Notes: generated by a model not told the origin, from the sequence alone. Shown: positions 9,156 through 58,452, counted from the stretch's first letter. The stretch is DNA of 64,000 bases from an uncultured cyanobacterium (GCA_963697335.1 CAVONQ010000007.1:32001-96000); one strand, 5' to 3'. Translations and numbers: made by a program.

Positions 9156-9156
9156 G

Positions 9157-12806: not shown

Positions 12807-12863
12807 ATGGGCAGGACTGGAAGGCGAGAGGCCTGGTGGCCTCCCGTCAGACAGCCTGTGAAC

Positions 12864-13163: not shown

Positions 13164-13295
13164 GGAAGGGATTGGGGCTCACAGGCACCCGGGCGACCGG
13201 GCCTGTAGGACCCGCCCTTCATACATCCGCCACAGGCCGTTCCTGCCGATTTCCAGGCCCGAGGGCTGGAAGGCCAATCAAAGGGCAAGCACAGA

Positions 13296-14252: not shown

Positions 14253-14281
14253 GGTTGATCGCGGCAGGGGAACGACCCCGG

Positions 14282-15868: not shown

Positions 15869-15954
15869 GCCCGGCGGGTGGGGTGGGGAAGCCGGAGGTG
15901 AAGTGTAGTGAGCAGCGAGAATCCCCTTGAAACCGATTTCTGAGGCACAGCGGC

Positions 15955-16458: not shown

Positions 16459-17240
16459 TGCTGCCGCGCCGCGACCTGCTGTCGGGCAGCCGCCATCCGG
16501 CCGAGCTGGAGGCCCTGATCGCCACCGCCGAACGGGTGCTGCACACCTGGCAGCCCCTCTGGAGCGGGTTTCTGGAGGGCTCGGTGCTGGAGGAGGCCCA
16601 GCAGCGCCTGGGCGATCTGGCCGAACTGCAGCTCCATGCCGAGGGGGGCTATGCCGGGGCGGAGCGCTGCCGGCTGCTGCTCAGCCGGCGGGACGGCGCC
16701 CAGGAGAGCGATGCCCCGCAGGCGGCCCTGGCCGGCCTCAGCCTGAATGGCAACTTTCTGTTCGATCCAGCCGAACCAGCCGAGTTCCGCGCCAGCCTCA
16801 GCGCGGCGGGGCTCCCCCCTGAAGCCCTGGGCGATCTCTGGCTGCGGGGCGACCGCGGTGCCCAGGCCGTGATGATCCCCAGCTGCGCCCTGCCCAAGGC
16901 GCTGGATCTGCAGGTGCGCAGCGTGCCGGTGACCCTGGAGCCCCTGCCCCTGGAGCAGCTTCAGCCCCCGGGGCGCCGCCTGGCACGCCGCATCGACACC
17001 GTGGAGGCCTCCCGGCGGCTGGACGCGGTCGCCTCCGCCGGCTTCGGCGTCTCGCGCAGTCGCATGGGCAGCTGGATCCGCGGCGGTCTGGTGCGGCTCA
17101 ACTGGGTCGAGGTGACCCGCCCGGGCCACGAGTTGGTGGCGGGCGACCGGGTGCAGCTGAGCGGCAAGGGGGAGCTGCAGGTGGAGGCGATCAGCCCCAC
17201 CAAGCGCGACCGCTTCCGCATCACCCTGCAGCGCCGCTGA
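16458..17240 (+). CDS. Photosystem II S4-domain / YlmH-like RNA-binding protein
   Basis: GGYAGAER and S4 motif RLDAVASAGFGVSRS...GDRVQLSGKG. Confidence 0.88.
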   Translation: MLPRRDLLSGSRHPAELEALIATAERVLHTWQPLWSGFLEGSVLEEAQQRLGDLAELQLHAEGGYAGAERCRLLLSRRDGAQESDAPQAALAGLSLNGNFLFDPAEPAEFRASLSAAGLPPEALGDLWLRGDRGAQAVMIPSCALPKALDLQVRSVPVTLEPLPLEQLQPPGRRLARRIDTVEASRRLDAVASAGFGVSRSRMGSWIRGGLVRLNWVEVTRPGHELVAGDRVQLSGKGELQVEAISPTKRDRFRITLQRR

Positions 17241-17472
17241 TGGCTGCTGGAGGCGAGAGCTCCGACTGCTAGGTTCCAAGCACCTTGTTACGGCAGGGCA
17301 CGGCATCGACCCGCTGCAGGACGGGGACCGTTGATGACTGATCCAGGCCCCAGGCCCGGTTGACTGTCACCAACAGCCTGTCTCGACCAGGGTTGACGTC
17401 GTTATCAAGATTCGGGCTTGAATTCAGAGTCAAGCACCGGGCTTCAACCTTCCACTCTCGAACCCGTTTTAC

Positions 17473-17544
17473 GGGCGATTAGCTCAGAGGTAGAGCACTA
17501 CCTTGACACGGTAGGAGTCACTGGTTCGATTCCAGTATCGCCCA
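17473..17544 (+). tRNA. trnV: tRNA-Val(GAC)
   Basis: GGGCGAT/ATCGCCC acceptor stem, TAGCTCAG D-arm, CTACC-TTGACAC-GGTAG anticodon arm, GGTTCGATTCC T-arm; CCA not encoded. Confidence 0.97.
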
Positions 17545-17579
17545 TTTGTCTGAACCGGCGCCCTGCAGCGCCGCCTCCG

Positions 17580-18998
<1,419 letters not shown>

Positions 18999-34836: not shown

Positions 34837-35244
34837 ATGTCCCTGACTCTCCGAGTTCTGGCACCGGACCAGAGCGTTTTTGATGGCAGCGCCGAAGAGG
34901 TGATCCTGCCCAGCACCACCGGCCAGGTGGGCATCTTGCCCGGCCACGTCACCATGCTGGCGGCCCTGGACACTGGGGTGATGCGTCTACGGGCGGGAGG
35001 ATCCTGGAGCACGATCGCCCTGCTTGGTGGCTTTGCCGAGGTGGAAGCCGATGAGGTCACGGTGTTGGTGAACGGCGCCCAACTGGGCGCCAGCATCGAT
35101 GCGGCTGCGGCCCAGGCTGAGTTCGAAGCAGCCCAGACCATCGCCAGCAGCTTTGAGGGCAAGTCGCCGAGCACGGAAAAGCTCAAGGCACAGCAGGCCC
35201 TTGCCAAGGCCAGGGCCTGGATGCAGGCCACCCGGGGCACCTGA
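34837..35244 (+). CDS. atpC: ATP synthase F1 epsilon subunit
   Basis: LPSTTGQVGILPGH, GGFAEV; follows the beta gene. Confidence 0.96.
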   Translation: MSLTLRVLAPDQSVFDGSAEEVILPSTTGQVGILPGHVTMLAALDTGVMRLRAGGSWSTIALLGGFAEVEADEVTVLVNGAQLGASIDAAAAQAEFEAAQTIASSFEGKSPSTEKLKAQQALAKARAWMQATRGT

Positions 35245-35333: not shown

Positions 35334-36470
35334 GTGGGAGGCAAGGGGCGTGAGCTCGGGCTGAAGCTCCGGGCCTGGCAGGAGAGCGGAACGCCGGGGC
35401 TGCTCAACGGCAAGACCATGGCGAACCGACTGGTGGATCTGCTCGGGGCCGATGAGATGTTGAAGGGTCCCGTGAGGGACCTGGCCGTGCAACCGCTTTT
35501 TCTGCGTGCCCTCGGCCCTTCCGGCGCCGCCCGCGACAGCTCCGTGGAGCAGCTGAGCCAGCAGCTCGCCGCCACCTATGCCCCGGCCGTGCTGGCCGAA
35601 CTGCTTGACCTGCTGGAGGCCGCCAGCGGGGTGGCCTTGCCGCGGCCGGAGAGCACGATGACCAGGCGCCACCCGCCGGCCCCAGGCGGTGGCCTGGCCG
35701 TGGACCGCGCCCTGCAAGCTCTGGGCCCCACGCTCCACGCCCTGGGCCCTGGCCTGGCCCTGGCCGCCAGCTTCGCCCTGGTGCTGCGCTGGTTCGGCGG
35801 CGAACTGGAGCGGGAGCTGTTCGAGCCCTGGGGCTGGCCCGCCGGCGTGGTACTGGCGTTGACACTGGGCCTGTTGCAGGCCCTGGCGATCGGCCCCCTG
35901 AAGGCCATCAGGCGCCAATGGCCGCTTGAGCAGGCCGATGCCTCCGATCCCCGCCAGGCCTGGCGCTGGATCACCGCCCCCTGGATCCACCACAGCCAGG
36001 CCGAGGCAGCCGTCAACGTGGTGGTGCTGCTGATCCTGCTGGGGCCCTCGCCCCTACCCCTGCCCGACCTGCTGCTGCGTTATGCCCTCACCAGCCTGGC
36101 CACCACGGCCCTGGCCCTGGTGCTGGCGAGGCGGGTCACCGACCAGCGGCGCTGGGATGGAGCCGCTGGGGCGATCAGCGCCCTGATCGGCCTGGGGGCC
36201 GCCTCCAGCCTGGTGCACTGGCGGGCCCTGGCCTACCCCCTGGGCAACAGCCTGGCCATCCCCTGCTGGGTGCTGCTGCTGATCTACGGCGCCCTGCAGC
36301 TGAGCTGGCAGCTGCCCCGCCAGAGCGACACTGACCTCAGCAGCCCCCTCGATCGCCTGCTGAGCTGCCAGTGGTGGTGGGGTCTGGCACTCGGGGTCGG
36401 CTGGGCCGTGGTCAGCCGGCTGGGGGGGCTGTTGCAACTCGCCCTGCGGGCCCGGGAAGCCGGCGGCTGA
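35334..36470 (+). CDS. Membrane protein: N-terminal helical domain plus degenerate rhomboid-like domain
   Basis: AWRWITAPWIH...N segment matches the rhomboid WR/H..N region; GAAGA occupies the GxSG position. Confidence 0.65.
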   Translation: MGGKGRELGLKLRAWQESGTPGLLNGKTMANRLVDLLGADEMLKGPVRDLAVQPLFLRALGPSGAARDSSVEQLSQQLAATYAPAVLAELLDLLEAASGVALPRPESTMTRRHPPAPGGGLAVDRALQALGPTLHALGPGLALAASFALVLRWFGGELERELFEPWGWPAGVVLALTLGLLQALAIGPLKAIRRQWPLEQADASDPRQAWRWITAPWIHHSQAEAAVNVVVLLILLGPSPLPLPDLLLRYALTSLATTALALVLARRVTDQRRWDGAAGAISALIGLGAASSLVHWRALAYPLGNSLAIPCWVLLLIYGALQLSWQLPRQSDTDLSSPLDRLLSCQWWWGLALGVGWAVVSRLGGLLQLALRAREAGG

Positions 36471-36476
36471 ACGGCC

Positions 36477-38819
36477 TCAACTGGGCTGGGCCGGGATGGC
36501 GCCCATGTAGCGGCCCCAGAGTTCGGCCACCAGGCCGCCGCTGGCCGCCTCGGCCGGCCGGTTGTCGTCGTTGCCCATCCAGATCGCCGTGAGGATCTGG
36601 CGGGAGGGGGAGTAGCCGATGAACAGCACATCGACGCCGTCGTTGGTGGTGCCGGTCTTGCCGCGGGCATCGGCCACCCCGGCGGCCGCCTTGCCGGTGC
36701 CGTCCCGCACCACCTGGGCCAGCAGGTCGTCCATCACCGCGGCATCAGCAGCCGTGAGCAGCTGGCGGGGCTGCTCACCGATCGGGGTGGTGACCCCCTG
36801 CTCCGGGCAGGTGTCGAGGCTGTAGATCGAGCGGCAGAGGCCCAGGTCGTAGATACGGCTGACTCCGTGCATCGGCACGCTGCTGCCGCCATTGGCCACC
36901 ACCGCGTAGGCGCGGGCCAGCTCGTAGAGCAGGGTTTCACGGCCACCCAGCATGGTGTTGAAGTCGGCGTCGAGGGGAGTGCTCAGGCCCAGCTGGCGGG
37001 CCTTGCGCACCACCTGGTTGAGGCCGGCCTTTTCGGCCAGCCGCAACGCCACCACATTCTCTGACTGGGCGAAGCCGCGGGCCAGCGTGATGCTGCCGCC
37101 CCCCTGGCGGCAGCCGGCCACGTAGCCCAGGGGGGCACAGGAGATCAGCTCGGTGGGGCGGGCGCCCGCCTCCAGTGCCGCCAGGTAGGGGAAGAGCTTG
37201 AAGGTGGAGCCAGGCTGGCGCAGGGCCTGAACCCGGTCGAAGCTGGAGCGGGAATAGTCGCCACCACCCACATAGGCGAGGATCTCACCGCTGCGGTAGT
37301 TGAGCGAGATCAGGGCGCCCTGGGTGAGGCCCACCCGAGCCGCCGGGCCCTCCAGGAAGCGCTGCAGTTGCAGCTGGGCCAGCTGCTGCAGCTTCGGGTC
37401 GATGGTGCTCACGACGTAGTAATTGCCGCCCGCCTCTTTCTCAGAGAGGTTGAGGCCGAAGCGGGTGCCTTCCAGTTCCCCGAGCACGTAGTCGCTGAAG
37501 AAGGGATAGCTGGAGAAGCTCGATTCACGGCAAGCGGAGGGATCGATGTTCAGCGGCCGCCGCTGGGCATCGATCAACTGCTGATCCCCCAGGTAGCCCT
37601 GCTCGTGCATGAGCTTGAGCACCAGGTCGCGGCGTTCCCGGCCAGCTGTGGGATCCTTGACATTGCAGGGGCTGTAGCCATTGGGGCTGGGCAGCAGCCC
37701 CACCAGGAAGGCCGCCTGGCCTACGTCGAGGTCGCTGACCGGCTTGCGGAAGTAGAGCCGGGAAGCCTGCTCGAAGCCGTCGGTGCCCAGGCCCAGGTGA
37801 GCCCGGTCCAGGTACATCTTGAGAATCTGGTTCTTGCTGTAGCCCACCTCCAGCTGCAGAGCCACCCAGAGCTCCCGCAGCTTGCGGCTCAGGCTGTAGT
37901 CAGTGCCCACCTCCGCGTAGTAGATGCGGGCGACCTGCTGGGTGAGGCCGCTGCCGCCGCCGCTGCCCAGCAGGGCCGAGCGCAGGGTGCCGAACAGATC
38001 CACGCCGCTGTTCCAGCCAAAGCGGGCCTCCTCGGAGGCCAGCAGGGCCTGGCGCAGATGGAGGGGGTAGGCCTGCAGGGAAGGCAGGGCCGTGGCCGAC
38101 CCCTCCTTGGCGTCGATCTGCTGGCCCGAGGCCGCCACGATCTTCACCGGGCCAGAGATCAGCCGGATGCGGGAGCCACCTCCGATCGAGGCCGCCGCCA
38201 GCAGCGCCCCCACCAGCAGGCCCGACCCCACCAGGCTGCCGAGGCCGAGCAGGTGCATGGCCTGCTCAAGGGCGCTGCGGGGGTGCAGGTAGCGGAGTCG
38301 GGGTGCCGCGCCCTTGAGCGGCGAGCCGAAGTGCACCCAGTCGCCATGGCGCAGGCGGATGGACCGGATGCGGCGATCGCGATGGAACAGGCCGTTGGCG
38401 GAATTGAAGTCCTCGAGAGCGAAATCACGCTCGCCGGGGCGCTGCTTCTCGAGAATGGCGTGCACCCGGCTGAGGCTATCGGCGGGCAGCGGCAACTCAC
38501 AGGCCGGGTCGCGGCCGATGCGGTAGCGGCCCTCCAGCAGCGCGGTGCGGCTCAGCCGCCGCTCCCCGAGCCACAGCTCCGCCACCGCCCTGTGCTCCCG
38601 CAGCGGCCCCCAGGCCGAGCGCACCGCGGCCGGACGGTCGGCCAGCCTCCCCCGGCCGCAGGCGGCCAGAAAGCGTTGCCAGGCCCGGCGGTGGCCTGGG
38701 CTGGCGGGGTCCGCGGCAGCCTCGGCCCCAGCACCGGCGGCGGACGCCCCGACCGACGGATCCAGCCGCCGGTCAGAGGCCGGATCGGTGGGCCGATCGG
38801 TGGTGGACGGGTCGGCCAT
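36477..38819 (-). CDS. FHA domain-class A penicillin-binding protein fusion
   Basis: FHA (IGR, SRVHA, SANG), TM helix, transglycosylase motifs (SEEARF, GGSGLTQQ, RKLRE), transpeptidase motifs (STFK, SEN, KTG). Confidence 0.92.
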   Translation of the reverse strand: MADPSTTDRPTDPASDRRLDPSVGASAAGAGAEAAADPASPGHRRAWQRFLAACGRGRLADRPAAVRSAWGPLREHRAVAELWLGERRLSRTALLEGRYRIGRDPACELPLPADSLSRVHAILEKQRPGERDFALEDFNSANGLFHRDRRIRSIRLRHGDWVHFGSPLKGAAPRLRYLHPRSALEQAMHLLGLGSLVGSGLLVGALLAAASIGGGSRIRLISGPVKIVAASGQQIDAKEGSATALPSLQAYPLHLRQALLASEEARFGWNSGVDLFGTLRSALLGSGGGSGLTQQVARIYYAEVGTDYSLSRKLRELWVALQLEVGYSKNQILKMYLDRAHLGLGTDGFEQASRLYFRKPVSDLDVGQAAFLVGLLPSPNGYSPCNVKDPTAGRERRDLVLKLMHEQGYLGDQQLIDAQRRPLNIDPSACRESSFSSYPFFSDYVLGELEGTRFGLNLSEKEAGGNYYVVSTIDPKLQQLAQLQLQRFLEGPAARVGLTQGALISLNYRSGEILAYVGGGDYSRSSFDRVQALRQPGSTFKLFPYLAALEAGARPTELISCAPLGYVAGCRQGGGSITLARGFAQSENVVALRLAEKAGLNQVVRKARQLGLSTPLDADFNTMLGGRETLLYELARAYAVVANGGSSVPMHGVSRIYDLGLCRSIYSLDTCPEQGVTTPIGEQPRQLLTAADAAVMDDLLAQVVRDGTGKAAAGVADARGKTGTTNDGVDVLFIGYSPSRQILTAIWMGNDDNRPAEAASGGLVAELWGRYMGAIPAQPS

Positions 38820-38823
38820 GGAG

Positions 38824-38852
38824 GCGTATCTCTGGCGCAGCCCGAGATACGC
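38824..38852. promoter_or_regulatory. Inverted repeat in the divergent intergenic gap
   Basis: GCGTATCTC-N11-GAGATACGC, perfect 9-bp arms; function inferred. Confidence 0.55.
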
Positions 38853-38876
38853 TAACCGCTCTGATCTCCCCGTCCC

Positions 38877-39152
38877 GTGCTGCGCCAGCGCGATCCTTGG
38901 GAGCCCTTCAGGCTCTGGCTGGCCCTCACGATCGGCCTCTACGCGATCCGTGCCAGCTTCGCCGCCACCTGGATGGGGGCGATCCCCGGCTGGGTGCTGC
39001 TGGCCATGGTGCTGGTCGCCTTGGCCCTGGCCAGCAAGGCCCTGGTCTTCCCCGGGCGTGTCACCCCCTACCGCGAAGGCGATGACGGCTGGTGGGCCGA
39101 CATTCAGGCCGACTGGCGCCTCTGGTGGCGCCGTCGCCGCGGGGGGGCATGA
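38877..39152 (+). CDS. Small membrane protein (about 2 TM)
   Basis: Two hydrophobic helices, Trp/Arg-rich tail, ATGA overlap with the next gene. Confidence 0.65.
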   Translation: MLRQRDPWEPFRLWLALTIGLYAIRASFAATWMGAIPGWVLLAMVLVALALASKALVFPGRVTPYREGDDGWWADIQADWRLWWRRRRGGA

Positions 39153-39898
39153 ATCCCCCACTCGCCCAGCTGCGGCTGCGGGATCAGGCCGGCAAGGTCG
39201 CCCGGCTGGATCCCCAGCAGCCACTCACCATCGGCCGGGCCACCAACAACAGGCTCTGCATGCCCGAGCAGTCGGGTCTCTCCCCCCACCACGCCGTGGT
39301 GCGCCACTCCAGCAGCCAGGGCGGCTGGGTGGTGTGCGACTGGCAGAGCACCGATGGCACCTACCTGCGGGGACAGCGCCTGCAGCACTGCCGACCCCTG
39401 GACGATGGCGACGAGATCCGGCTGGGCATCAACGGGCCGGTGTTGATTTTTTCACTGGCTCCGGCAACCCCGGCGACCAGCCCTCCAGCCCCAGAGCCCC
39501 CCCCCGCCCAGGTTCCGAGTGCGCCCCCCGCCGCTCACCGCGCCGCCTCTGCCGCCCCTGCCGCCCCACGCAGCATCGACATCGGCGGCGAGCAGATCGC
39601 CCTCGATCAGATTCGCTCGGCCACGGTGTTCAGCCTGCCGCGCCACCCCCACATCTTCAGCTGGTGGCTGCTGGTCAGCCTCGGCAGCCTGCTGCTGCTG
39701 CCCTTTCCGCTGCTGTTCTGGCCCCTGGAGGTGGCGGCCCTGGCCGGCTGGGTCCTGCTGGGGTCCCGCAAAGACCACAGCCTTGTGGTGGTGCTGCGCG
39801 ACGGTCGCGCCCAGCGGCGCAGCTTCTCCAACCGGCTCACGGCCCTCTCCCACCGCAACGGCATCCGCAAGGCCATCGGCCAGAGTCTGGGGGCCTGA
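39149..39898 (+). CDS. FHA domain membrane protein
   Basis: TIGRATNN, LSPHHA, STDGTY, LDDGDEIRLG; Pro/Ala linker; C-terminal TM hairpin. Confidence 0.88.
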   Translation: MNPPLAQLRLRDQAGKVARLDPQQPLTIGRATNNRLCMPEQSGLSPHHAVVRHSSSQGGWVVCDWQSTDGTYLRGQRLQHCRPLDDGDEIRLGINGPVLIFSLAPATPATSPPAPEPPPAQVPSAPPAAHRAASAAPAAPRSIDIGGEQIALDQIRSATVFSLPRHPHIFSWWLLVSLGSLLLLPFPLLFWPLEVAALAGWVLLGSRKDHSLVVVLRDGRAQRRSFSNRLTALSHRNGIRKAIGQSLGA

Positions 39899-39911
39899 CC
39901 AGCCACCCCCT

Positions 39912-41246
39912 GTGACCTGGATCCTGCCGGAAGGCGCCAGCCTCGACCTCGAGGGCATGGCCGGCCCGCTGCGGGTGCTGCGGGGCCTCGGCGGCGGCAC
40001 CCAGGGACAGGTGTACGCGGTGGAGACCGCCGGGGAACAGCTGGCGCTGAAGTGGTACCTGCCAGCCTGCATCGCCCGCGATCCGAATCTGGAGCGGCGG
40101 CTGGGGGAGAGCATCCGGGCCACAGCTCCCAGCGACGCCTTCCTCTGGCCCCTGGCCCTGGTCAAGGCCAGCCCAGGGGCCCTGGGGCTGATACGCACTC
40201 GAGAGCCGGGCTTCGGCTACCTGATGGAGCTGCGCCCTGCCGGCTTCCTCGGGGCCCATGAGCATGTGGGCGGCCACCTGGAGATCAGCCTGCGCAACGT
40301 GGTGCGGGCCTGCTTCTTTCTGGCGGAGGCCTTCCACGCCCTGCACCTCAAGGGCCTCTGTTACAAAGACATCTCCCTGGGCAACCTGTTCCTGGAGCCC
40401 TCCAGCGGCCGCATCCTGATCTGCGACAACGACAACGTCGACGTGGATGGCCGCGACCTGGGCAGCGTGCTGGGCACCCCCGGCTTCATGGCGCCGGAGA
40501 TCCTGATGGGCCGGGCCCGGCCGGGGGCCGCCAGCGATCTGTTCTCCCTGGCGGTGCTGATCTTCCGCCTGCTCACCCGTAGCGATCCGCTGCGGGGGGA
40601 GCGGGAACTGGCGATCCGCTGCCTCGACGAGCCCGCCCGGCGGCGGCTCTACGGCGAGGAGCCCCTGTTCATCTTCGATCCGCGCGATGCCCGCAACCGG
40701 CCCGACCCGATCGAGCACGCCGCCGCCCTGGTCACCTGGCCGATCTACCCCGAGCCGATCAAGCGGCTGTTCGAGCAGACTTTCTGCGACGGCCTGCAGG
40801 CTCCGCGGCGGCGGGCCCTCACCGGCCAGTGGATGGCCGCCCTGGCGGCGGCCCTGGACCAGCGCCAGCCCTGCCCCCACTGCGGCCAGGAGACCTTCCC
40901 GGATCCGGCGGCCCAGGCCCCCCTCTGCTGGAGCTGTGGCAACCCCCTGCCCGCGCCGCTGCGGCTGAGGCTCGCCCATGGCCTGGTGACGGCGGCGGCG
41001 GGCAACGAGCTCCATCCCCACCATGGCGACAGCCGGCTGCCCGTGGCCCTACACCAACCCGTGGCCAGGGTGGAGGCTCACCCCGGTGATCCCACCCTGC
41101 TGGGGCTGCGCAACCTGGGCAACCAGGCCTGGCTGGCCGAACTCACAAACGACAGGCGGGTCACGGTGGAACCGGGCCAAACCTGTAATCTCGCGCCACT
41201 GGTGCGGCTGATCACGCCGACCGGGGCCATTGCGCTGCAGTCCTGA
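39912..41246 (+). CDS. Ser/Thr protein kinase (TerY-associated type) with Zn ribbon
   Basis: LGGGTQGQV, ALK, YKDISLGN, CDNDN, GTPGFMAPE, SDLFSLA; CPHCG...CWSCG. Confidence 0.9.
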   Translation: MTWILPEGASLDLEGMAGPLRVLRGLGGGTQGQVYAVETAGEQLALKWYLPACIARDPNLERRLGESIRATAPSDAFLWPLALVKASPGALGLIRTREPGFGYLMELRPAGFLGAHEHVGGHLEISLRNVVRACFFLAEAFHALHLKGLCYKDISLGNLFLEPSSGRILICDNDNVDVDGRDLGSVLGTPGFMAPEILMGRARPGAASDLFSLAVLIFRLLTRSDPLRGERELAIRCLDEPARRRLYGEEPLFIFDPRDARNRPDPIEHAAALVTWPIYPEPIKRLFEQTFCDGLQAPRRRALTGQWMAALAAALDQRQPCPHCGQETFPDPAAQAPLCWSCGNPLPAPLRLRLAHGLVTAAAGNELHPHHGDSRLPVALHQPVARVEAHPGDPTLLGLRNLGNQAWLAELTNDRRVTVEPGQTCNLAPLVRLITPTGAIALQS

Positions 41247-41269
41247 GCGAGTCGTCGAGCCCGGAACCG

Positions 41270-42052
41270 ATGCCCTTCCCCAACGTCAGGCTCGCCAATC
41301 GCCCACTCCATTTCATCTACATCTGCGACTGCTCCGGTTCGATGGAGGCCCAGGGCAAGATGCGGGCCCTCAACCAGGCGATCCGCCAGTCCTTGCCGGG
41401 CATGGCCGAGGTGGCCCGCCAGAACCCGGAGGCGCGGGTGCTGGTGCGGGCCGTGAGCTTCGCCGACCGGGCCGGCTGGCACATCGCCGCGCCCACGCCG
41501 GTGCAGGAGCTGGAGTGGGTGGATCTGCAGGCCGGTGGCATCACTGCCATGGGGGAGGCCCTGGAGCTGGTGGCTGCGGTGTTGCAGTCGCCGCCGATGG
41601 AGGAGCGGGCCCTGCCGCCGGTGCTGGTGCTGATCTCGGACGGTCAGCCCACCGACGACTTTGACGCTGGCCTGGCCAACCTGATGCGGCGCCCCTGGGC
41701 CCAGAAGGCGGTGCGCCTGGCGATCGCCATGGGCCACGACGCCGACACCGAAGTGCTGCAGCAGTTCATCGGTCCTGACCCTGCCGGCCATCTGCCCGCG
41801 GGAGAAATTCCCGGGGCCAGCGGCCAGAGCCCCCTGCACTGCGTGGGCAGATCCCCCCGCCGGCCGCTCCAGGCCAGCAACGCCACCTCCCTGGCCCAGT
41901 ACATCCAGTGGGCCTCCACCGCCGTGGTGGGCGCGGCCTCCATGCCCACCAGCCGCCTGGCGGGAACGGGCCCTGCCGGCAACATCCCCCTGCCGGATCT
42001 GCCCCCCACCCAGCTGGACCCCACCGACGATGTGGGACCGGTGGTGTGGTGA
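41270..42052 (+). CDS. TerY/YegL-like vWA domain protein
   Basis: RPLHFIYICDCSGSM (MIDAS DxSxS), GGITAMGEAL, LISDGQPTDD. Confidence 0.92.
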   Translation: MPFPNVRLANRPLHFIYICDCSGSMEAQGKMRALNQAIRQSLPGMAEVARQNPEARVLVRAVSFADRAGWHIAAPTPVQELEWVDLQAGGITAMGEALELVAAVLQSPPMEERALPPVLVLISDGQPTDDFDAGLANLMRRPWAQKAVRLAIAMGHDADTEVLQQFIGPDPAGHLPAGEIPGASGQSPLHCVGRSPRRPLQASNATSLAQYIQWASTAVVGAASMPTSRLAGTGPAGNIPLPDLPPTQLDPTDDVGPVVW

Positions 42053-43362
42053 ACCGCTGGCACCCACCGCTCCAGGCACGCCGCAGCGGTGCGGCCCATC
42101 GGCGCCAGGGCCGCCCCTGCCAGGACGCGGTGGCCATCGGCGAGCTGCGCAGCCGCGACGGCCAGGCCGTGCAGGTGATGGCCGTGGCCGATGGCCATGG
42201 CGGTGAGCGCTACATCCACAGCGCCGAGGGCAGCCGCCTTGCCTGCAGCGTGGCCCTGGCGGCCGTGGACCAGGGGCTGCGGGCCGGCGACCTGCCTGCT
42301 GGCGAGGGGCCGGAGCTGCAGGCGTGGCTGCACTGGCTGGCGGTCGCCCTGCCCCGCCAGCTCCACAGCGACTGGCTCAACGCCGTGCAGGGACACTGGC
42401 AGGGCCTGACCGCCCTGGAGCAGGCCCAACCCGCCGAAGCCGACGTGCCCCTGCTCTACGGCACCACCCTGGGGCTGGTGCTGATGGCCCCCGGCTGGTG
42501 GGGCTTCACCGGTCTTGGCGACTGGGACCTGGTGCGGATCGACGCGGCGGGCCAGGGGGAGCTGCTGAGCGAGGAGCCGTTCATGGGCGGTGGTGAAGCC
42601 ACCGGCAGCCTCTGTCTGGAGCGGGCGGCCGAGGGATTCCGCAGTGGGCTGACACCGATCCGCGATCCCGATCGCGCCTTCGCCCTGGTGTTAAGCAGTG
42701 ACGGCATCCGCAAGTCGTGCGCTACCGATGCCGACTTTCTCGCCCTGGCCTGCCACCTGGCCAGCACCGCGGCTTTGGCAGCCGGCGACGATCTGGCCGC
42801 CTGCCTCGATCAGATCAGCTGCGAGGGCAGCGGCGACGACGTGACCGTGGCCATCGGCCACTGGGGCGGATCGGGTCCCATGACCGAGCCACAGCCGGCT
42901 GCAGAGCCACCTCCTCCACCGGCTCCACAGCGACGGAGCAGGACCATCGGGCTCGCAGCCCTGGCCCTGGTGGTGGTAGCCGGGATGGTCTGGGGCTGGC
43001 TGGGACAGCGGCAGCGGAACCAGGCCGGCCGCCCGGCCGCGCCCGTGGCGGCCGAGATCACCCGGCTCTGCCGCAGCCCCGCCGCCACCATCGGCGGTAC
43101 CCTGAGCGGCCGGCGCAGTCAGTTCAGCGGGCTCCGCCAGGGCACCCTGACCCCCGCCCAGCTGCTGGCCTCGGCCCAGCTCGACCCCCTTGGTGCCCTG
43201 ATCGCCAGCAGTTTCGATCCGGGCAGGGCTGGCATGGTCCAGGGGTCCGGCCTCCGGGACCTCGCCCTCTGTCCCGATCTGGCAGCCGCCCTGGGCCAGC
43301 AGTGGCAGGCGGGCAGTGCCGCCGCGGCACCCAAGCTCGATTCCCTCCCTTCCCCGCCATGA
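42049..43362 (+). CDS. PP2C-type phosphatase (YegK-like) with TM helix and C-terminal domain
   Basis: GAAH....PCQD, VADGHGG, YGTTL, GLGD, SDGI, GDDVT; TM IGLAALALVVVAGMVWGWLG; GTGA overlap with the vWA gene. Confidence 0.88.
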   Translation: MNRWHPPLQARRSGAAHRRQGRPCQDAVAIGELRSRDGQAVQVMAVADGHGGERYIHSAEGSRLACSVALAAVDQGLRAGDLPAGEGPELQAWLHWLAVALPRQLHSDWLNAVQGHWQGLTALEQAQPAEADVPLLYGTTLGLVLMAPGWWGFTGLGDWDLVRIDAAGQGELLSEEPFMGGGEATGSLCLERAAEGFRSGLTPIRDPDRAFALVLSSDGIRKSCATDADFLALACHLASTAALAAGDDLAACLDQISCEGSGDDVTVAIGHWGGSGPMTEPQPAAEPPPPPAPQRRSRTIGLAALALVVVAGMVWGWLGQRQRNQAGRPAAPVAAEITRLCRSPAATIGGTLSGRRSQFSGLRQGTLTPAQLLASAQLDPLGALIASSFDPGRAGMVQGSGLRDLALCPDLAAALGQQWQAGSAAAAPKLDSLPSPP

Positions 43363-44370
43363 CCGACCACCAGCTCGGCGCTGCCCTGAAGGCCCAGGTG
43401 CTCAACGACCGCCAGCGGGGTCTGGCCGCCGATGGCCGACGCCTCCAGGCGGTGGTGGGCGACCTCTGCGGGGGCGATCAGGCCGGGTTGCTGCCCGCCG
43501 TGCGCTACCTGGTGATGTCGGCGGCCTTCGCCAGTGCGGCCGGCCAGGCCGAGCCCCTCGCCGATCCCCGGCTCCGCCCCCGACTGATGCAGGAGTTGCA
43601 GCAGGTGTTCACACCCGCCATCTGCGGGCGCATGGAGGAGGTGCTTCGCGGGCTGCTCAGCCTGCCCTCCCAGGCCGGGGCCATCCCTGTCCCTCCCTAT
43701 CCCTGCACCTGGACCTGCACCTGCACCTGCGGCTACTGCCGTGCCCCTGCCGGCAGTTGCCGCAGCGGCGCCGCCCCCTCCTGAGGCCCCCCCCGGCCGC
43801 AGCGGTTCCAGCAACGGGGGCCTGCTGGCCGTTCTGTCCTTCCTCACGGGCGGCTTACTGATGGCCCTGATCGGCGCCGTGGTGCTGGTGCACCAGTCCC
43901 GCCTGCCGCCAGTCCAGGTCAGTGCCCCACCAACGGCCCTCCCAAGCCCGGAGCCGGAACCGGAACCGCCGCCCTCGGAACTGACTCCCCCCGCCGAACC
44001 GAGCCTGCCGGACGCAGCCCAGAGCGGAGCGGCGTGGGACCAGGCCATGGCGGATCAGGCCTTGGCCAGCCTCCAGGGCCTCTATGCCGCCCTGAGCAGC
44101 AAGAACTTCAGCGAAGCTCGCCAGTACTTCGGCGGAGCCGCCGCCGACCAGTTCGACCCTGCCTTCTTCGAGCAGTTCAAGCGGGTGAGCGTCGCTGACC
44201 TGCGTGAAACCAGCCGGGTGGGCTCCAACCTCAACTTCCAGGGCACCGTGACTTTCGTCTACCCCGACGGCAGCATTCAGATCGAGAACCGCAGTTTCAG
44301 CGTGGACACCAGCAGCAGCCCAGCCCTGATCACCGGCAGCGAGTTCGGTGGGGTGCTGAAATCCCGCTGA
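43359..44370 (+). pseudogene. Frameshifted membrane protein: helical N-terminal domain, Pro linker, TM helix, possible NTF2-like domain
   Basis: ATG 43359 overlaps the PP2C stop; the frame degenerates to CTWTCTCTC near 43700 while the +1 frame continues PAPGPAPAPA into ORF 43741-44370; may be a sequencing error. Confidence 0.7.
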
Positions 44371-44473: not shown

Positions 44474-44974
<501 letters not shown>

Positions 44975-50202: not shown

Positions 50203-51893
50203 TGCAGCTCGCCCTCGCCCAGCTCAATCCCCTCGTGGGAGATCTGCTGGGCAATGGCGAGCGCATCCTGCGGGCCTGCCGCGAGGCCGCCAGCGGCGGG
50301 GCCGAGCTGGTGCTCACCCCCGAGCTCTCGCTCTGGGGCTATCCGCCACGGGACCTGCTTCTGCAACCATCGCGCCTGGCCGCCCAGGCCAGCGTGCTGG
50401 AGCAGCTGGCCACTGACCTGGCCGCCCACTGCCCCGGGCTGGCCGTGCTGGTGGGCATCGCCGAGCCGAGCGGCAGCTCCACCCTGCCCAGCCTGTTCAA
50501 TGCCCTGGCCCTGGTGCAGGCGGGGGGCTGGCGGGTGGTGGCGCGCAAACAGCTGCTGCCCACCTACGACGTGTTCGATGAACAGCGCTACTTCCGTCCG
50601 GGCTCGGAGCCGGCTGTGCTGCAGCTGAACGGCCGGGATGGCCCCCTGCGGCTTGGGCTCACCATCTGCGAGGACCTCTGGGTGGAGCAGGAGCTTCAGG
50701 GTCACCGCCTGGCGGGCCCCGATCCGGTGGCGGCCCTGGAGCACCAGGGACTGGACCTGCTGGTCAACCTCTCGGCTTCGCCCTTCACCCCGGGCAAAGC
50801 CGCCCTGCGCCATGCCCTCGGGGCCCGGGCGGCCCGGCGGCTGGGCTGTCCGGTGGTGTACGTGAACCAGGTGGGGGGGAACGACGAGCTGGTCTTCGAT
50901 GGGGCCAGCTTTGTGGTGGACCGCGCCGGGGCCGTGGTGTGTCAGCTGCCGAGCTGCCAGGAGGCCCTGGAGCCCTGGGACCCCCTGCTCAGCCACGGCT
51001 CCAGCGGGGCTCTGCCCGAGCCGATCGAGCAGCTGTTTCGCGCCCTGGTGCTGGGGGTGCACGACTATGCGGGCAAGTGCGGTTTTGGGCGGGTGCTGCT
51101 CGGGCTCAGCGGCGGCATCGATTCCGCCCTGGTGGCGGTCGTGGCGGTGGCGGCCCTGGGAGCCCCCCAGGTGCGGGCCCTGCTGATGCCCTCCCCCTGG
51201 AGCTCCGAGGGTTCGGTGGCCGATGCCCTGGCCCTGGCCAGCCGGCTGGGCCTGGGCACCGACACGGTGCCGATCGCCGAGCTGATGGACGGCTTCGATG
51301 CAGCTCTGGCCCCAGCCCTGGGGCAGGTGCCGGCCGGGCTGACGGCCGAGAACCTGCAGTCGCGCATCCGCGGCACCCTGCTGATGGCGGTGGCCAACCA
51401 GGACGGCCAGCTGCTGCTCTCCACGGGCAACAAATCCGAACTCGCCGTGGGCTACTGCACCCTCTACGGCGACATGAACGGGGGTCTGGCGGTGATCGGC
51501 GATCTCTACAAGAGCACGGTCTTTGCCCTGTGTGCCTGGCTCGACAGCCCGGAATCCTCCGCCTGCCGCGGGGCCCTGGGCTTGCCGGCTGAGGGGGAGC
51601 TGATCGGCGCAGCCATCCGCCAGAAGCCCCCCAGCGCTGAACTGCGCCCCGACCAGCGCGACAGCGACTCCCTCCCCGACTACGGCCAACTCGACCCCCT
51701 GCTCCAGGCCCTGGTGGAGGAGCACCGCAGCCCCGAGGAGCTGGTGGCCCAGGGCAGCGACCCCGCCCTGGCCGCCCGGGTACATGGCCTGCTGCAGCGG
51801 GCGGAGTTCAAGCGCCGCCAGGCGGCACCGGTGCTCAAAGTGAGCGGTCACGCCTTCGGCAGCGGCTGGCGGATGCCGATCGCCGCTGGTTGA
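50202..51893 (+). CDS. nadE: Glutamine-dependent NAD+ synthetase
   Basis: Nitrilase triad (PEL, KQLLP, ICED), SGGIDS, ENLQSRIRG, TGNKSE, PSAELRPDQ. Confidence 0.96.
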   Translation: MQLALAQLNPLVGDLLGNGERILRACREAASGGAELVLTPELSLWGYPPRDLLLQPSRLAAQASVLEQLATDLAAHCPGLAVLVGIAEPSGSSTLPSLFNALALVQAGGWRVVARKQLLPTYDVFDEQRYFRPGSEPAVLQLNGRDGPLRLGLTICEDLWVEQELQGHRLAGPDPVAALEHQGLDLLVNLSASPFTPGKAALRHALGARAARRLGCPVVYVNQVGGNDELVFDGASFVVDRAGAVVCQLPSCQEALEPWDPLLSHGSSGALPEPIEQLFRALVLGVHDYAGKCGFGRVLLGLSGGIDSALVAVVAVAALGAPQVRALLMPSPWSSEGSVADALALASRLGLGTDTVPIAELMDGFDAALAPALGQVPAGLTAENLQSRIRGTLLMAVANQDGQLLLSTGNKSELAVGYCTLYGDMNGGLAVIGDLYKSTVFALCAWLDSPESSACRGALGLPAEGELIGAAIRQKPPSAELRPDQRDSDSLPDYGQLDPLLQALVEEHRSPEELVAQGSDPALAARVHGLLQRAEFKRRQAAPVLKVSGHAFGSGWRMPIAAG

Positions 51894-51963
51894 GCCAGTC
51901 TGGGGACACGCCTACCGCGTCTGCATGGCTGCCCAGGCTTCGTCCCTTCCCCTCACTGCGCCG

Positions 51964-53076
51964 ATGGCGAGCATCGGTGTACCCACAGAAATCAAGCGCG
52001 ACGAGCGGCGCGTGGCCCTCACCCCCGATGGGGTGCGGGAGCTGGTGGGCCAGGGCATGGAGGTGCGGGTGCAGCAGGGCGCCGGCCTTGGCGCCGGCCT
52101 GGAGGATGCCGACTTCAGCGCCGCCGGTGCCCGACTGGTGAGCTGTGAGGAGGCCTGGGCCGCCCACCTGGTGGTGAAGGTGAAGGAACCCCAGCCCGAG
52201 GAGTTCGTTTACCTGCGCAGCGACCTGGTGCTGTTCACCTACCTGCACCTCGCCGCCTACCCGGCCGTGGGCCGGGCCCTGCTGGAGGCGGGCACCACCT
52301 CCGTGGCCTACGAGACGGTGCAGCTGGAAGACACCAGCCTGCCCCTGTTGGCGCCGATGAGCGAGATCGCCGGCCGGCTGGCGGCCCAGGTGGGCGCCCA
52401 CCTGCTGGAGAAGCCCCACGGCGGTCGCGGCATCCTGATGGGTGGCTGCACCGGCGTGCGGCCGGCCCGGGTGGTGGTGCTGGGGGCCGGCACCGTGGGC
52501 TGGAACGCCGCCCGCATCGCCGCCGCCATGGACGCCGAGGTGTTCCTGCTTGACCGTTCTCCCCAGCGCCTGCGCCAGCTGGAGGCCGACCGCCGCGGCC
52601 GGCTGGTGAATCTGGTCAGCAGCCGCAGCCTGGTGGAGCGCCTGGTACCGGGTGCCGACCTGGTGATCGGGGCCGTGCTCACGCCGGGGGGCCGGGCCCC
52701 CACCCTGGTGGACGAGGAGCTGGTGCAGCGGATGAAGCCGGGCTCGGTGATCGTGGATGTGGCCATCGACCAGGGGGGCTGCATCGCCACCAGTCGGGAG
52801 ACCACCCACACCGAACCCGTCCATACCGTGCACGGCGTGCAGCACTACGCCGTGGGCAACATGCCCGGGGCGGTGCCCTTCACCTCCACCGAGGCCCTGA
52901 TGAGTGTCACCCTCCCCTACATCCTGGTGATGGCGGGCCGCGGGCTGGCGGAGGCCGTCACCGACCGCCCGGAGCTGCTCTCCGGGCTGAACACGGTGGA
53001 TGGGGCGGTCTGCCATCCGGGCGTCGCGAAGGCCCTCGGCGTGTCGCCACGGCACCCGATGGCCTGCCTGCGCTGA
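51964..53076 (+). CDS. ald: Alanine dehydrogenase
   Basis: [44 protein letters not shown]. Confidence 0.96.
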
Positions 53077-55962: not shown

Positions 55963-56916
55963 TCAGGCCATGGCGGCCGAGCCACCCACCACTTCGAGAA
56001 TCTCCTGGGTGATGGCGGCCTGGCGAGCTTTGTTGTAGTCCAGCGTCAGGGTCTTGGCGAGAGCCTTGGCATTGTCGCTGGCGTTGTTCATGGCCGTCAT
56101 CCGGCTCGCCAGTTCCGAGGCGGCGGCCTCCTGCAGGGAGCGCAGCAACTGATTCTGCATGTACAGCGGCAGCAGAGCGTTCAGCAACTGCTCGGGGCTC
56201 TGGTCAAAGACGATGTCCGAGGGCAGGGAAGGGGCGACGTTGCTGGCGCTACCCGCTTCCACCACCAGGCGACCCTCACGGGTGGTGAGCCTGAACATCT
56301 CATCCTCTGGGGTGGCAATCCCCTGGGAATCGAGGGGCAGCAGCGTCTGAATAACAGGCCTGGAGCTCACCAGGTTGATGAACTTGGTGAAGATAATTTC
56401 CACCCGGTCGGTAGAGGCGGAGAGGAATTCCGCCAGGATTTCGTTTGAAATCGCCATGGCCTCATCGGCACTAGGCACCTGCTCAAGGCCAGTAAACGTG
56501 GCCCGAATGGTGTAGAGGCTGGCGCGATTCTGGAAGTAGGTGATGGCCTTGCGGCCGATCAGAACCAGATCCACCTTGAAGCCCTGGCCCACCAGCTCAG
56601 CGTGGCGCAGTTCCGTGCGCTTGATGATGTTGGCGTTGTAGCCACCGCAGAGCCCACGATCACCTGTGACGGCCAGCAGGGTGATCTGATCCACGGGGCG
56701 GGACTCCAGCAGGGGAGCATCCACATCTTCGAAGCGCATGCGCGACTGGAGATTTTCCAGGACGCGGGCCAGGCGATCGGCAAAGGGGCGACTGCGCAGG
56801 ACCTGGTCCTGGGCGCGACGCACCTTGGCAGCAGCCACGAGACGCATGGCCTCGGTGATCTTGCGGGTGTTCTTGACAGAACTGATGCGGTCGCGGATTT
56901 CCTTGAGGTTGGCCAT
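55963..56916 (-). CDS. atpG: ATP synthase F1 gamma subunit
   Basis: [34 protein letters not shown]. Confidence 0.98.
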
Positions 56917-56934
56917 GGTTTTGTTTCCTCCTGC

Positions 56935-58452
56935 TCAGATCGAGGCCAACATGGTGGATTTCACTTCAGTGATGGCGTCCTTGAGCATGGCTTCCGCCTC
57001 TTCGCTGAGCACCTTCTCGGTTAGCACCTTGGAGATGTAGTCGGGCTTGTTGGACTTGAGGTACTCACGCAGTTCGCGACAGAACTGGACAACCCCATCC
57101 ACTGGAACCTCATCAATCAGGCCCTTCACACCGGCGTAAACGACAGCCACCTGCTCCGCAAGGTTCAGCGGGCTGAACTGCGGCTGCTTGAGGATTTCGC
57201 GCAGCCGCTTGCCCCGGCCCAGCTGCGCCTGGGTAGCAGCATCCAGGTCAGATGCGAACTGAGAAAAAGCTGCCAGTTCATCGAACTGAGCCAACTCGAG
57301 CTTGAGGGTGCCGGCAATTTTCTTGATGGCCTTGGTCTGGGCAGCACCCCCCACTCGACTCACCGAGATGCCCACGTTGATGGCAGGGCGGAGGCCGGAG
57401 TTGAACAAGTCGGAGCTGAGGAACACCTGGCCATCGGTGATCGAGATCACATTGGTGGGGATATACGCCGATACGTCGCCAGCCTGGGTCTCAATGATCG
57501 GCAGCGCAGTCATCGAGCCCTTGCCCATGGCATCAGAGAGCTTGGCGGCGCGCTCAAGCAGGCGGCTGTGGCAGTAGAAAACATCGCCGGGGTAGGCCTC
57601 GCGGCCGGGAGGCCGGCGGAGCAGGAGGGACATCTGGCGATAGGCCTGGGCCTGCTTGGTGAGGTCGTCATAGATCACCAGGGTGGCCTTGCCCTTGTAC
57701 ATGAAGTATTCGGCCAGAGCTGCACCGGTGTAGGGAGCCAGGTATTGCATCGCGGCCGCCTCAGAGGCACTGGCACAAACCACGATCGTGTAGTCGAGGG
57801 CGCCTTTTTCACGAAGGACATCGACCACATTGGCCACAGAGGCATTCTTCTGGCCAATCGCCACATAAACGCAGACCACATCTTGGCCCTTCTGGTTGAT
57901 GATCGTGTCGATCGCGATGGCGGTCTTGCCAGTCTGACGGTCACCGATGATCAGCTCGCGCTGGCCGCGACCAATGGGGATCATCGCGTCAATCGCGGTA
58001 ATGCCGGTCTGCAAGGGCTCATGCACCGACTTGCGCTCGATGATGCCAGGCGCCATCGACTCGATCAGGCGGGATTCGGTGCTAGCAATGTCCCCTTTGC
58101 CATCGATCGGCTGACCAAGGGAGTTGACCACCCGGCCGAGCATGGCGTCACCCACCGGCACGGAGGCGATCTTGCCGGTGGCCTTAACGGTGCTGCCCTC
58201 CTGGATGCCACGGCCCTCGCCCATCAGCACAACGCCGACGTTGTCATCCTCAAGGTTGAGAGCAATCCCCTCGGTGCCATCCTCAAACTCAACCAGTTCG
58301 CCGGCCATGGCCTGCTGCAGGCCGTAGACGCGGGCGATGCCGTCGCCGATCTGCAGCACGGAGCCGACGTTGTTGACGGCCACCGACTTGTCGTAGTCCT
58401 CAATCTGCTGCTTGAGGATGGCGCTGATCTCGTCAGGACGGATGGAAACCAT
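56935..58452 (-). CDS. atpA: ATP synthase F1 alpha subunit
   Basis: [23 protein letters not shown]. Confidence 0.99.

Follow-up and report, generated by a model that had tools for sequence, protein, structure and literature searches.

A TerY-P-type signalling trio linked to an FHA-tagged class A penicillin-binding protein in picocyanobacteria

TerY-P modules are defined by a vWA (von Willebrand factor A) protein resembling TerY, a PP2C phosphatase and a kinase with a C-terminal zinc ribbon, according to the available part of an account of these systems (PMC11090510). In E. coli the triad is represented by YegL, PphC (YegK) and YegI. Here we describe, from freshwater picocyanobacteria, a 9-kb cassette of eight genes in which the same three families, namely a vWA protein with a metal ion-dependent adhesion site (MIDAS), a PP2C_2 phosphatase and a zinc-ribbon kinase, are encoded contiguously and stand next to a class A penicillin-binding protein (PBP) that carries an FHA domain. 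The cassette occupies positions 35334-44370 of a window of 64,000 nucleotides (the whole stretch of DNA that was analysed, from whose first nucleotide all positions are counted) from an uncultured cyanobacterium (GCA_963697335.1, CAVONQ010000007.1:32001-96000), and is located in the interval between atpC and ycf65. It differs from the E. coli triad in its partners: the trio shares an operon with genes for an FHA protein with a transmembrane (TM) segment (FHA-TM), a small TM protein and a protein in which a cassette-specific domain, here called X, is joined to a TM segment and an NTF2-like domain; the gene for the FHA-PBP is divergent from this operon and is accompanied by that for a putative pseudo-rhomboid; the phosphatase is membrane-anchored and has a periplasmic domain; and there are no nuclease or helicase partners. 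The association of such a trio with an FHA-tagged class A PBP and membrane partners appears to be new. A literature search, outside whose coverage most subscription journals lay, found no TerY-P trio coupled to an FHA-class A PBP, a pseudo-rhomboid or X and NTF2-like proteins, and no paper on FHA-tagged PBPs of picocyanobacteria; the initial annotation, made from the sequence alone, had likewise known of no description of the combination.

What is already known is the TerY-P trio itself, operons of vWA, kinase, FHA and PP2C genes (in Deinococcus, as far as the available part of the source describes them) and the logic of kinase, PP2C, FHA protein and wall synthase (in actinobacteria). The actinobacterial fhaA-fhaB-pstP-rodA-pbpA-pknA-pknB cluster encodes kinases, a TM-anchored PP2C, FHA readers and a peptidoglycan synthase. 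The initial annotation had drawn a parallel with this cluster, and the parallel holds for the logic of writer, eraser and readers around wall synthesis, here built from TerY-type parts, but not for membership of the cluster: Pfam found no PASTA or FtsW/RodA (shape, elongation, division and sporulation, SEDS) domains in the proteins of the locus. Whereas the actinobacterial cluster has membrane PASTA kinases and a SEDS protein paired with a class B PBP, the cassette has a soluble zinc-ribbon kinase, a class A PBP with its own FHA domain, and a vWA protein. A division-wall cluster of the actinobacterial type was therefore rejected as an identity for the locus, given the absence of PASTA and SEDS domains, a kinase without a TM segment and a synthase of class A. 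In Sulfolobus, ArnA (FHA) and ArnB (vWA), with the ArnC/D kinases, form a phosphorylation-dependent pair connected with the archaellum and the DNA-damage response; the pairing of FHA and vWA is shared with the cassette, but the system is archaeal and has no PBP.

The Deinococcus radiodurans genes DRA0331-DRA0334 encode a vWA protein, a Ser/Thr protein kinase, an FHA protein and a PP2C with KI-FHA, and have been described, in the available part of a preprint, as a push-pull phospho-docking switch (bioRxiv 10.64898/2026.01.23.701218). By gene content, the only level at which the two are likened here, this operon resembles the cassette in combining vWA, kinase, FHA reader and PP2C; as portrayed in that part of the preprint, however, its authors relate it to DNA-damage kinases, and neither a PBP nor membrane partners belong to it. 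Mycobacterium tuberculosis Rv1747 is an ABC transporter with two FHA domains that is regulated by a Ser/Thr kinase (PMC5549992, available part). Like the cassette PBP, it is an envelope effector with its own cytoplasmic FHA domain, and a comparable FHA-FHA-ABC transporter is encoded near the trio of Prochlorococcus sp. MIT 0707; in contrast to the cassette, its effector is a transporter, and the available part of the source reports no vWA or PP2C_2 trio. In type VI secretion, the kinase PpkA, the PP2C PppA and the FHA protein Fha control the assembly of an envelope machine (PMC3953482, available part). The cassette similarly brings kinase, PP2C and FHA together at the envelope, although its kinase is not a membrane protein. 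Since a Pfam scan of 11 proteins of the locus and its immediate surroundings showed no type VI secretion genes, the type VI threonine-phosphorylation pathway was rejected as an identity for it. PpkA itself contains a vWA domain.

We consider it on balance probable that the cassette is a self-contained, transferable envelope module, in which a TerY-P-type phospho-switch gates a dedicated auxiliary class A PBP. The predicted proteins provide an intact writer, an eraser and two readers, one of the readers being part of a class A PBP that looks catalytically intact, and three of the cassette proteins have periplasmic domains. That the output is peptidoglycan synthesis is suggested by the linkage, the topology and the conserved catalytic motifs.

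The signalling genes are consecutive on the plus strand, with a 23-nt gap followed by a 4-nt overlap: the kinase (444 aa, YegI type; 39912-41246; Pfam Pkinase), the vWA protein (260 aa, YegL/TerY type; 41270-42052; Pfam VWA, 28.7 bits) and the PP2C-TM phosphatase (437 aa, PphC type; 42049-43362; Pfam PP2C_2, 1.8e-24). Pairwise BLASTP matches to the E. coli proteins are weak (YegL, E 8e-6; PphC, E 3e-6; YegI, E 9e-8). Profiles made from alignments of cassette orthologues match the same proteins by hhalign at 97.5% and E 8.4e-12 over 320 columns (kinase with YegI), 97.7% and E 2e-12 over 170 columns (vWA with YegL), and 96.6% and E 6.4e-10 over 244 columns, taking in all 253 PphC residues (PP2C with PphC). 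The hallmark residues are in place. In the kinase, the glycine loop, K47, D153, N158, D172/D174 and the APE motif are invariant in 28 sequences. The MIDAS residues D20, S22, S24, T92 and D124 of the vWA protein are invariant in 30 sequences, and its C-terminal tail is conserved. The metal-binding set of the PP2C (D26, DGHG at 48-51, DG at 218-219, GDD at 262-264) is invariant in 20 sequences; a TM segment at residues 300-318 is followed by a periplasmic domain of ~110 aa. In the four structural respects considered, the predicted proteins are those of a TerY-P triad, and the claim of the initial annotation that the vWA, PP2C and kinase genes form a triad of the yegL/yegK/yegI type is borne out by the hhalign matches, the hallmark residues and the contiguity of the genes. 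A comparison with PADLOC, which the initial annotation had proposed, went the other way. Scanned with its hidden Markov models (HMMs) only, the locus was not recognised as TerY-P: the vWA protein gave a weak match to TerY (E 0.0015, 16.1 bits), the kinase matched the generic PD-T4-6 and mad6 models, and the PP2C had no match.

The zinc ribbon of the kinase is formed by four cysteines (C321, C324, C339 and C342), invariant in 28 sequences, one of them from a CoCoNuT-linked locus; Pfam Zn_ribbon_3 gives weak matches in 17 of 29 members (best E 0.0075). It is followed by a C-terminal beta-rich domain with invariant G398, N401 and W407 (28 sequences). An AlphaFold2 model of the kinase has a pLDDT of 90.3 and a pTM of 0.92, and in a fold search residues 1-380 match Hanks kinases at Z ~21 (for example PknB, 1mru, Z 20.5). 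The C-terminal beta domain resembles FHA motifs by eye; among the 29 members it matches neither FHA (0/29) nor OB in Pfam. A profile of the kinase C-terminus met only zinc-ribbon ribosomal proteins among PDB sequences, at E > 0.1, and searches of the ESM Atlas with this C-terminus and with the X domain returned only unnamed clusters (0.88-0.90). The zinc-ribbon/beta domain seems to be a shared module of trio systems.

The FHA-class A PBP (780 aa; 36477-38819, minus strand) has Pfam matches to FHA (3.2e-14), Transgly (1.8e-40) and Transpeptidase (2e-23). The FHA domain is N-terminal and cytoplasmic, and a single TM segment (190-208) leads to the periplasmic glycosyltransferase and transpeptidase domains. 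Thirty cassette PBPs retain the phosphothreonine-binding FHA residues GR, SRVH and NG together with the glycosyltransferase motifs and SxxK/SxN/KTG, although in all 30 the His of the first glycosyltransferase motif is replaced by Asn. Against the NCBIfam model PBP_1a_fam the protein scores 378.9 bits, below the cut-off of 508.75. A word-index search found 264 proteins that match its N-terminus at E <= 0.001. All 120 of these matches that were listed have FHA and Transgly, 119 of them also having Transpeptidase (the exception is a 432-aa entry), and those that bear a name are called only 'transglycosylase domain-containing protein' or similar. The architecture is not unique to the cassette, because there is a core FHA-class A PBP (718 aa; contig C6, about 50645-52801; L147:1146-3302, minus strand), 41% identical to the cassette PBP over 705 aa. 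This core protein is present in all 24 genomes sampled from the same genus, and of 151 genomes drawn from the family, 73, for the most part larger ones, have it with an FHA-bearing N-terminus (E <= 1.2e-54). The cassette PBP is, as judged by sequence, an extra copy and a paralogue of the core FHA-PBP. In the whole genome of 2.58 Mb there are three FHA domains, two in the cassette and the third in the core PBP, and two clear Hanks kinases, one of which is that of the cassette. The other Hanks kinase (contig C3, about 56296-56979) has a TM segment.

The second cassette reader, the FHA-TM protein (249 aa; 39149-39898, plus strand), has a Pfam FHA domain (2.4e-14) with conserved GR and H residues, a Pro-rich linker and a C-terminal membrane anchor (TM 172-190). 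It is preceded by the small membrane protein (91 aa; 38877-39152, plus strand), which has a hydrophobic segment at 40-58 and motifs conserved in 29 sequences, and which has no match in Pfam, NCBIfam or PADLOC. By a simple hydropathy scan the kinase and the vWA protein have no TM segments, the PBP, the PP2C and the product of the last gene one each, the small and FHA-TM proteins at least one each, and the rhomboid-like protein six.

The layout of these genes, established by listing open reading frames (ORFs) and inspecting start codons, agrees with that first described: ORF listing and Pfam show eight genes with the domains claimed for them between atpC (ATP synthase epsilon; 34837-35244, plus strand) and ycf65 (PSRP-3; 44474-44965, minus strand; Pfam PSRP-3_Ycf65, 4.5e-27), both outside the cassette, and the coordinates confirm the junctions, namely three overlaps of 4 nt, two gaps (13 and 23 nt) and one divergent spacer of 57 nt. 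The overlaps are ATGA between the small and FHA-TM genes, GTGA between vWA and PP2C, and ATGA between PP2C and the last gene; the 13-nt gap separates FHA-TM from the kinase gene and the 23-nt gap the kinase from the vWA gene. At the left end the rhomboid-like gene (35334-36470, plus strand) converges on the PBP gene, their stop codons being 6 nt apart. Its start is a GTG at 35334, supported because the residues directly after it, GKGRELG, are kept in relatives. The spacer (38820-38876), which separates the start of the small TM protein gene from that of the PBP gene, is presumably a common control region. Since a scan of the locus found no sigma-70-like promoter sites (0.3 expected), this function is deduced from the divergent layout, which relatives keep; the two terminator-like sites found (2.2 expected) were both intragenic and give no signal.

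The arrangement is kept far beyond chance. Conservation was followed in a sample of 24 genomes of the same genus, in a wider family draw of 301 genomes from 64 genera, and in a species-level set of 56 named loci from Synechococcus, Cyanobium, Vulcanococcus, Aphanothece and two Prochlorococcus, for which the component counts take in only loci with enough flank. The kinase is present in 12 of the 24 same-genus genomes and a PBP N-terminus of the cassette type also in 12; both occur in 11 and neither in 11, and the two discordant genomes are 77-78% complete. In the family draw the kinase turned up in 66 of the 301 genomes, which belong to 12 of the 64 genera, and two of these genera reach 16/17 and 4/4. 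The block of the PBP gene and the divergent small, FHA-TM, kinase, vWA and PP2C genes is intact, by tblastn of fetched loci, at 10/10 same-genus and 19/20 other-genus loci. Component by component, the in-family loci contain the vWA protein in 50/50, the PP2C in 45/45, the FHA-TM protein in 50/52, the small protein in 49/51, the PBP in 45/47, the rhomboid-like protein in 34/44, and the N- and C-terminal parts of the last gene in 23/45 and 24/43, with atpC beside the cassette in 31/43 and ycf65 in 29/40. The linkage of the trio with the FHA-PBP and with the rhomboid-like gene, proposed from a single genome, therefore recurs in others. The divergent adjacency of PBP gene and operon is kept across 54-87% protein identity and in at least three genomic contexts; the block stays whole away from atpC and ycf65 (L015, L018-L022, L032 and L043), and the relocated copy L042 also retains the rhomboid-like gene. 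In five of five kinase-negative genomes of the same genus atpC lies 146-300 nt from ycf65, and the whole 9 kb, including the rhomboid-like gene, is missing. Cultured carriers include Vulcanococcus limneticus LL, Synechococcus sp. BO 8801 and Cyanobium sp. BSA11S.

Two in-family loci (L091 and L095) have the trio without the PBP. The former belongs to Prochlorococcus sp. MIT 0707 (L031/L054/L091), where the PP2C has no TM anchor and where the FHA-FHA-ABC transporter (785 aa) mentioned above, a Zn-peptidase, two trypsin-TPR proteins, a DUF2939 protein and a phage-type integrase are encoded near the trio; there is also a weak X-domain match (E 1.2e-6, L031:5216-5962). Some other copies are interrupted. 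In G013 (L022) the match to the kinase is broken into residues 1-377 and residues 380-440; in G155 (L025) the PP2C matches in two overlapping pieces; and the PP2C match of L035 (G246) contains a stop codon. Decay of cassette genes in these three genomes is possible.

The remaining two proteins share the X domain. The rhomboid-like protein matches Pfam Rhomboid (PF01694) at 33.5 bits (cut-off 22.6) and has six hydrophobic segments. Among 14 orthologues the serine of the GxSG motif in TM4 is Ala in the window and five others, Thr in one and Ser in seven, and an alignment of the same 14 shows a conserved His in the last TM segments (TM6) of none; the core rhomboid of the genome carries both catalytic Ser and His. 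Because the Ser-His dyad is missing, the cassette protein is probably no protease but a pseudoprotease. Its cytoplasmic N-terminal ~100 aa constitute one X domain, which is homologous to that of the last gene product (hhalign 83.7%, E 8e-6, 96 columns). HMMs of both versions also match a third type of X protein, located after the PBP gene in relocated loci; in L019 this comprises an X domain, a linker, a TM segment and a coiled-coil region. The HMMs find the X domain just twice in the entire genome of 2.58 Mb, both times in the cassette. It is present in 27 of 30 in-family loci, the misses being one short contig, L034 and L043, and in none of 24 loci outside the family.

The last gene, which has no Pfam, NCBIfam or PADLOC match, was right in the initial annotation as to its position and 4-nt overlap but is not a single ORF here: the assembly holds it in two frames, one (43359-43784, plus strand) encoding the X domain and the start of a Pro/Ala linker, the other (43741-44370, plus strand) the linker, the TM segment and the periplasmic NTF2-like domain. 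The apparent 1-nt shift lies near 43680-43700/43705, in a C-rich repeat that encodes the Pro/Ala linker. All 15 relatives with a match have a single ORF of 304-358 aa. In the assembly of a strain 99.6% identical to this one (run X1), two contigs stop on either side of the shift, one at 43697 and the other at 43702, and among the contigs of four DNA runs compared with the locus none spans 43698-43701. The frameshift may result from faulty assembly, or it may mark a genuine and possibly variable site. In an AlphaFold2 model of the closest intact orthologue (L024), a six-helix X domain (pLDDT ~96) is followed by one TM helix and a C-terminal domain (residues 220-328, pLDDT ~96). The latter is NTF2-like: VIA-align matches over 215-328 have Z scores of 10.2-12.8 and root mean square deviations of 2.1-3.9 over 94-119 residues, all 50 fold matches listed cover residues 209-328, and the matches include the NTF2 domains of the wall enzymes or sensors Csd6 and RsgI9. 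The best Foldseek match of the model is 2jq5 (E 4.7e-4), and Bd1075 and the N-terminal domain of Enterococcus faecium PBP5 were also found. In one relative of the same genus (L015, 11788-13572) a 594-aa ORF encodes the PP2C-TM protein with an NTF2-like domain fused directly to its C-terminal end, in place of a separate X-TM-NTF2 gene.

Trees show that the cassette has moved between genera. In a tree of concatenated PBP, kinase and vWA sequences (30 rows, comprising the window and 29 loci but not L031, which has no PBP), the cassette of the window is grouped, at SH-aLRT 100, with the three copies of a different genus (code g73), and the ten other copies from the window's own genus form a separate clade. 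A constraint that unites the eleven same-genus copies lowers the log-likelihood by 301.6 units (approximately unbiased test, p = 2.6e-23), the constrained group having been set by genus code after the identity values had already been seen. A tree of the flanks (atpB, atpC, ycf65, HAD and pepP; 19 rows, consisting of full-flank loci at the site and five empty sites) instead makes the window sister to the cassette-free G012 (SH-aLRT 100, 96% identity), within a clade of four genomes whose other three members have no cassette. The simplest reading of these sequences is that the window lineage acquired the cassette from a g73-like donor of another genus at the same atpC/ycf65 site, probably by recombination in the conserved flanks. 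Base composition was rejected as proof of transfer for the window cassette: the GC content of the locus is 0.69-0.74 as against 0.61-0.65 for groEL and atp genes, but the DNA downstream is equally GC-rich (~0.72) and the contigs average 0.66-0.70. In G146 (L032), a genome of ~49% GC, the GC content at third codon positions is ~0.54-0.65 in the cassette compared with 0.35-0.45 in most neighbouring ORFs (range 0.32-0.50), which is a composition sign of recent import; trypsin-like and TPR proteins flank the cassette there.

Related trios occur well outside the family. A scan of a genome collection gave 24 such loci with kinases 39-44% identical over nearly the full length, in Anaerolineae and other Chloroflexota, Planctomycetota, Nostoc, Pegethrix, Stenomitos, Prochloron, Methylococcales/Crenothrix, Clostridiales, Pyrinomonadaceae and Actinomycetota. 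A vWA protein (43-54% identical) and a PP2C (24-32%) accompany the kinase in 20 of the 24, the remaining four having less than 2 kb of contig upstream; the cassette PBP, the small protein and the X domain were found in none of the 24. The neighbours are varied: FHA-PrsW proteases in Nostoc and Pegethrix, an FHA-FHA-trypsin-like protein in Actinomycetota, and elsewhere WD40, LRR or TPR proteins, extra vWA proteins, PIN and BrxL. In a Pegethrix bostrychoides metagenome-assembled genome (L117, 2213-11323), genes for MORN, L,D-transpeptidase (YkuD), FHA, FHA-PrsW and RDD proteins lie between those of the PP2C and the kinase, which connects the trio independently with the cross-linking of peptidoglycan and with an FHA-tagged intramembrane protease. 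Near the trios of L113, L116, L120 and L124 are proteins with a segment like the zinc-ribbon/beta domain of the kinase (tblastn, 30-36% identity, residues ~318-433); its carriers include vWA proteins of ~600 aa and the C-terminus of an FHA-PrsW protein. Locus L023 (G029, 7990-18260) is CoCoNuT-like, encoding Abi_2, a vWA protein (33% identical), a zinc-ribbon kinase (26-35% identical, and sharing the four Cys and the C-terminal motifs of the cassette kinase), a UPF1-like helicase and an AAA_5 (McrB-like) ATPase, with no PP2C between or beside the vWA and kinase genes. Nine IMG/VR contigs have kinases 31-36% identical to that of the cassette, seven of them with a vWA protein and five of those seven also with a PP2C; no close copy of the cassette was found in IMG/VR viral contigs, only trios at this level of identity. 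The trio is thus read as a mobile signalling cassette, often with FHA-tagged effectors, of which the PBP-coupled form is the picocyanobacterial version.

How the cassette might work can be put as follows. The soluble kinase would write phosphothreonine on cassette proteins, the candidates being the C-terminal tail of the vWA protein, proposed as phospho-acceptor by analogy with the FHA/vWA pairs of Sulfolobus, or the kinase itself. These marks would be read in the cytoplasm by two FHA domains, that of the PBP and that of the FHA-TM protein, and the reading would assemble or release a membrane complex so that polymerisation and cross-linking by the PBP are switched on, switched off or relocated. 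The membrane-anchored PP2C would erase the marks and reset the switch, while its periplasmic domain and the NTF2-like domain of the last gene product would make the switch responsive to the condition of the wall or periplasm. Through the cassette-specific X domain that they share, the probably inactive rhomboid-like protein and the product of the last gene may serve as membrane scaffolds or adaptors. It is from the features of the proteins that we infer who phosphorylates whom, what the signal is and how the PBP is affected. Consistent with such a scheme, trios elsewhere stand beside FHA-tagged envelope effectors: an FHA-FHA-ABC transporter, an FHA-PrsW protease with an L,D-transpeptidase, and an FHA-FHA-trypsin protein. 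The system is real and strongly conserved, and the mechanism is plausible.

Several observations weigh against a wall-directed module of this kind: about half of the same-genus genomes do without the cassette; copies are disrupted in the last gene of the window and in genes of G013, G155 and L035; the first 40-50 residues of the PBP are not conserved among the 30 sequences; PADLOC did not recognise the triad; a look-up of RNA runs gave none that contains the locus; and the trio family has defence-type relatives and contexts. It is because of this last point that the role could be defence instead of wall homeostasis. The cassette would then be an anti-phage or conflict system, in which the trio senses infection and drives an envelope effector arm (PBP, pseudo-rhomboid and NTF2 protein) that blocks adsorption, injection or lysis, or aborts infection by deranged wall synthesis; the mechanism would be shared with the envelope module and only the role would differ. 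In the available part of PMC11090510, TerY-P-like modules are reported both to stand alone as antiphage systems and to belong to CoCoNuT systems. The nearest out-of-family homologue in the first draw adjoins Abi_2, a UPF1-like helicase and an AAA_5 ATPase; the 39-44% identical trios of many phyla include some beside BrxL, PIN and WD40/LRR/TPR-trypsin proteins; IMG/VR contigs have 31-36% identical kinases, most with a vWA protein; and the cassette is patchy within the genus (12/24) and has moved between genera. On the other hand, PADLOC gave only generic kinase matches, the weak TerY match (E 0.0015) and nothing for the PP2C, and Pfam found no nuclease, helicase or other classical effector in the locus. 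The cassette also sits at a single conserved housekeeping site in many genera (atpC in 31/43, ycf65 in 29/40) and is near-universal in some (16/17 and 4/4), and such a fixed location and near-universality are unlike typical defence-island turnover. As the trio family has defence relatives and the cassette is mobile, we regard a defence role as a serious candidate, albeit an unlikely one.

Other explanations fare less well. The invariance of the MIDAS residues in 30 sequences would suit a Ter-type sensor of metal or oxidative stress, in which the vWA protein senses a divalent metal or tellurite-like stress and the wall is adjusted. TerY-P triads have been hypothesised to be a metal-sensing phospho-switch linked to tellurite resistance (PMC11090510, available part, citing Anantharaman 2012), and P-type metal ATPases are encoded at a distance of a few kb from two relocated copies, those of L015 and L018. 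These ATPases are neighbours at only two of the relocated sites examined, however, and are not adjacent, and Pfam found no ter genes (terZABCDE) in the locus, which makes this sensor improbable. The trio and the PBP might also be no more than co-inherited island neighbours without functional coupling: the cassette PBP is absent from all 24 out-of-family loci, L091 and L095 have the trio without it, and the core FHA-PBP exists independently of the trio. Chance neighbours would hardly be expected to keep their divergent adjacency in 45/47 loci, at 54-87% identity and in at least three contexts, nor would the cassette hold two of the three FHA readers of the whole genome; the PBP-free variants, moreover, carry another FHA-tagged effector. 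We hold mere co-inheritance to be very improbable, and the least likely of the explanations weighed.

A more speculative form of the defence idea, which we also regard as unlikely and would place after the infection-sensing system above, is that the cassette provides an inducible 'armour', or envelope immunity. An attack by phage, lytic enzymes or grazers would be sensed through the periplasmic NTF2-like and PP2C-linked domains, and the auxiliary FHA-PBP would be switched on; the 9-kb unit would spread between genera by homologous recombination at atpC/ycf65, and the FHA-tagged outputs (PBP, ABC exporter, PrsW, trypsin-like protease) would be interchangeable. If this were true, defence-type TerY-P switches could use a peptidoglycan synthase as their effector.

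Picocyanobacteria (Synechococcus, Cyanobium and Vulcanococcus) are major primary producers with very few Ser/Thr kinases. Read as an envelope module, as we favour, the cassette offers a compact case of one writer, one eraser and two readers, and nature has supplied both knock-in and knock-out: near-identical genomes exist with and without it, and it is therefore suited to testing whether phosphothreonine gates a class A PBP. The suggested design rule, one trio with exchangeable FHA-tagged effectors, would apply across phyla. A signalling trio known mainly from defence loci is now tied to cell-wall synthesis.

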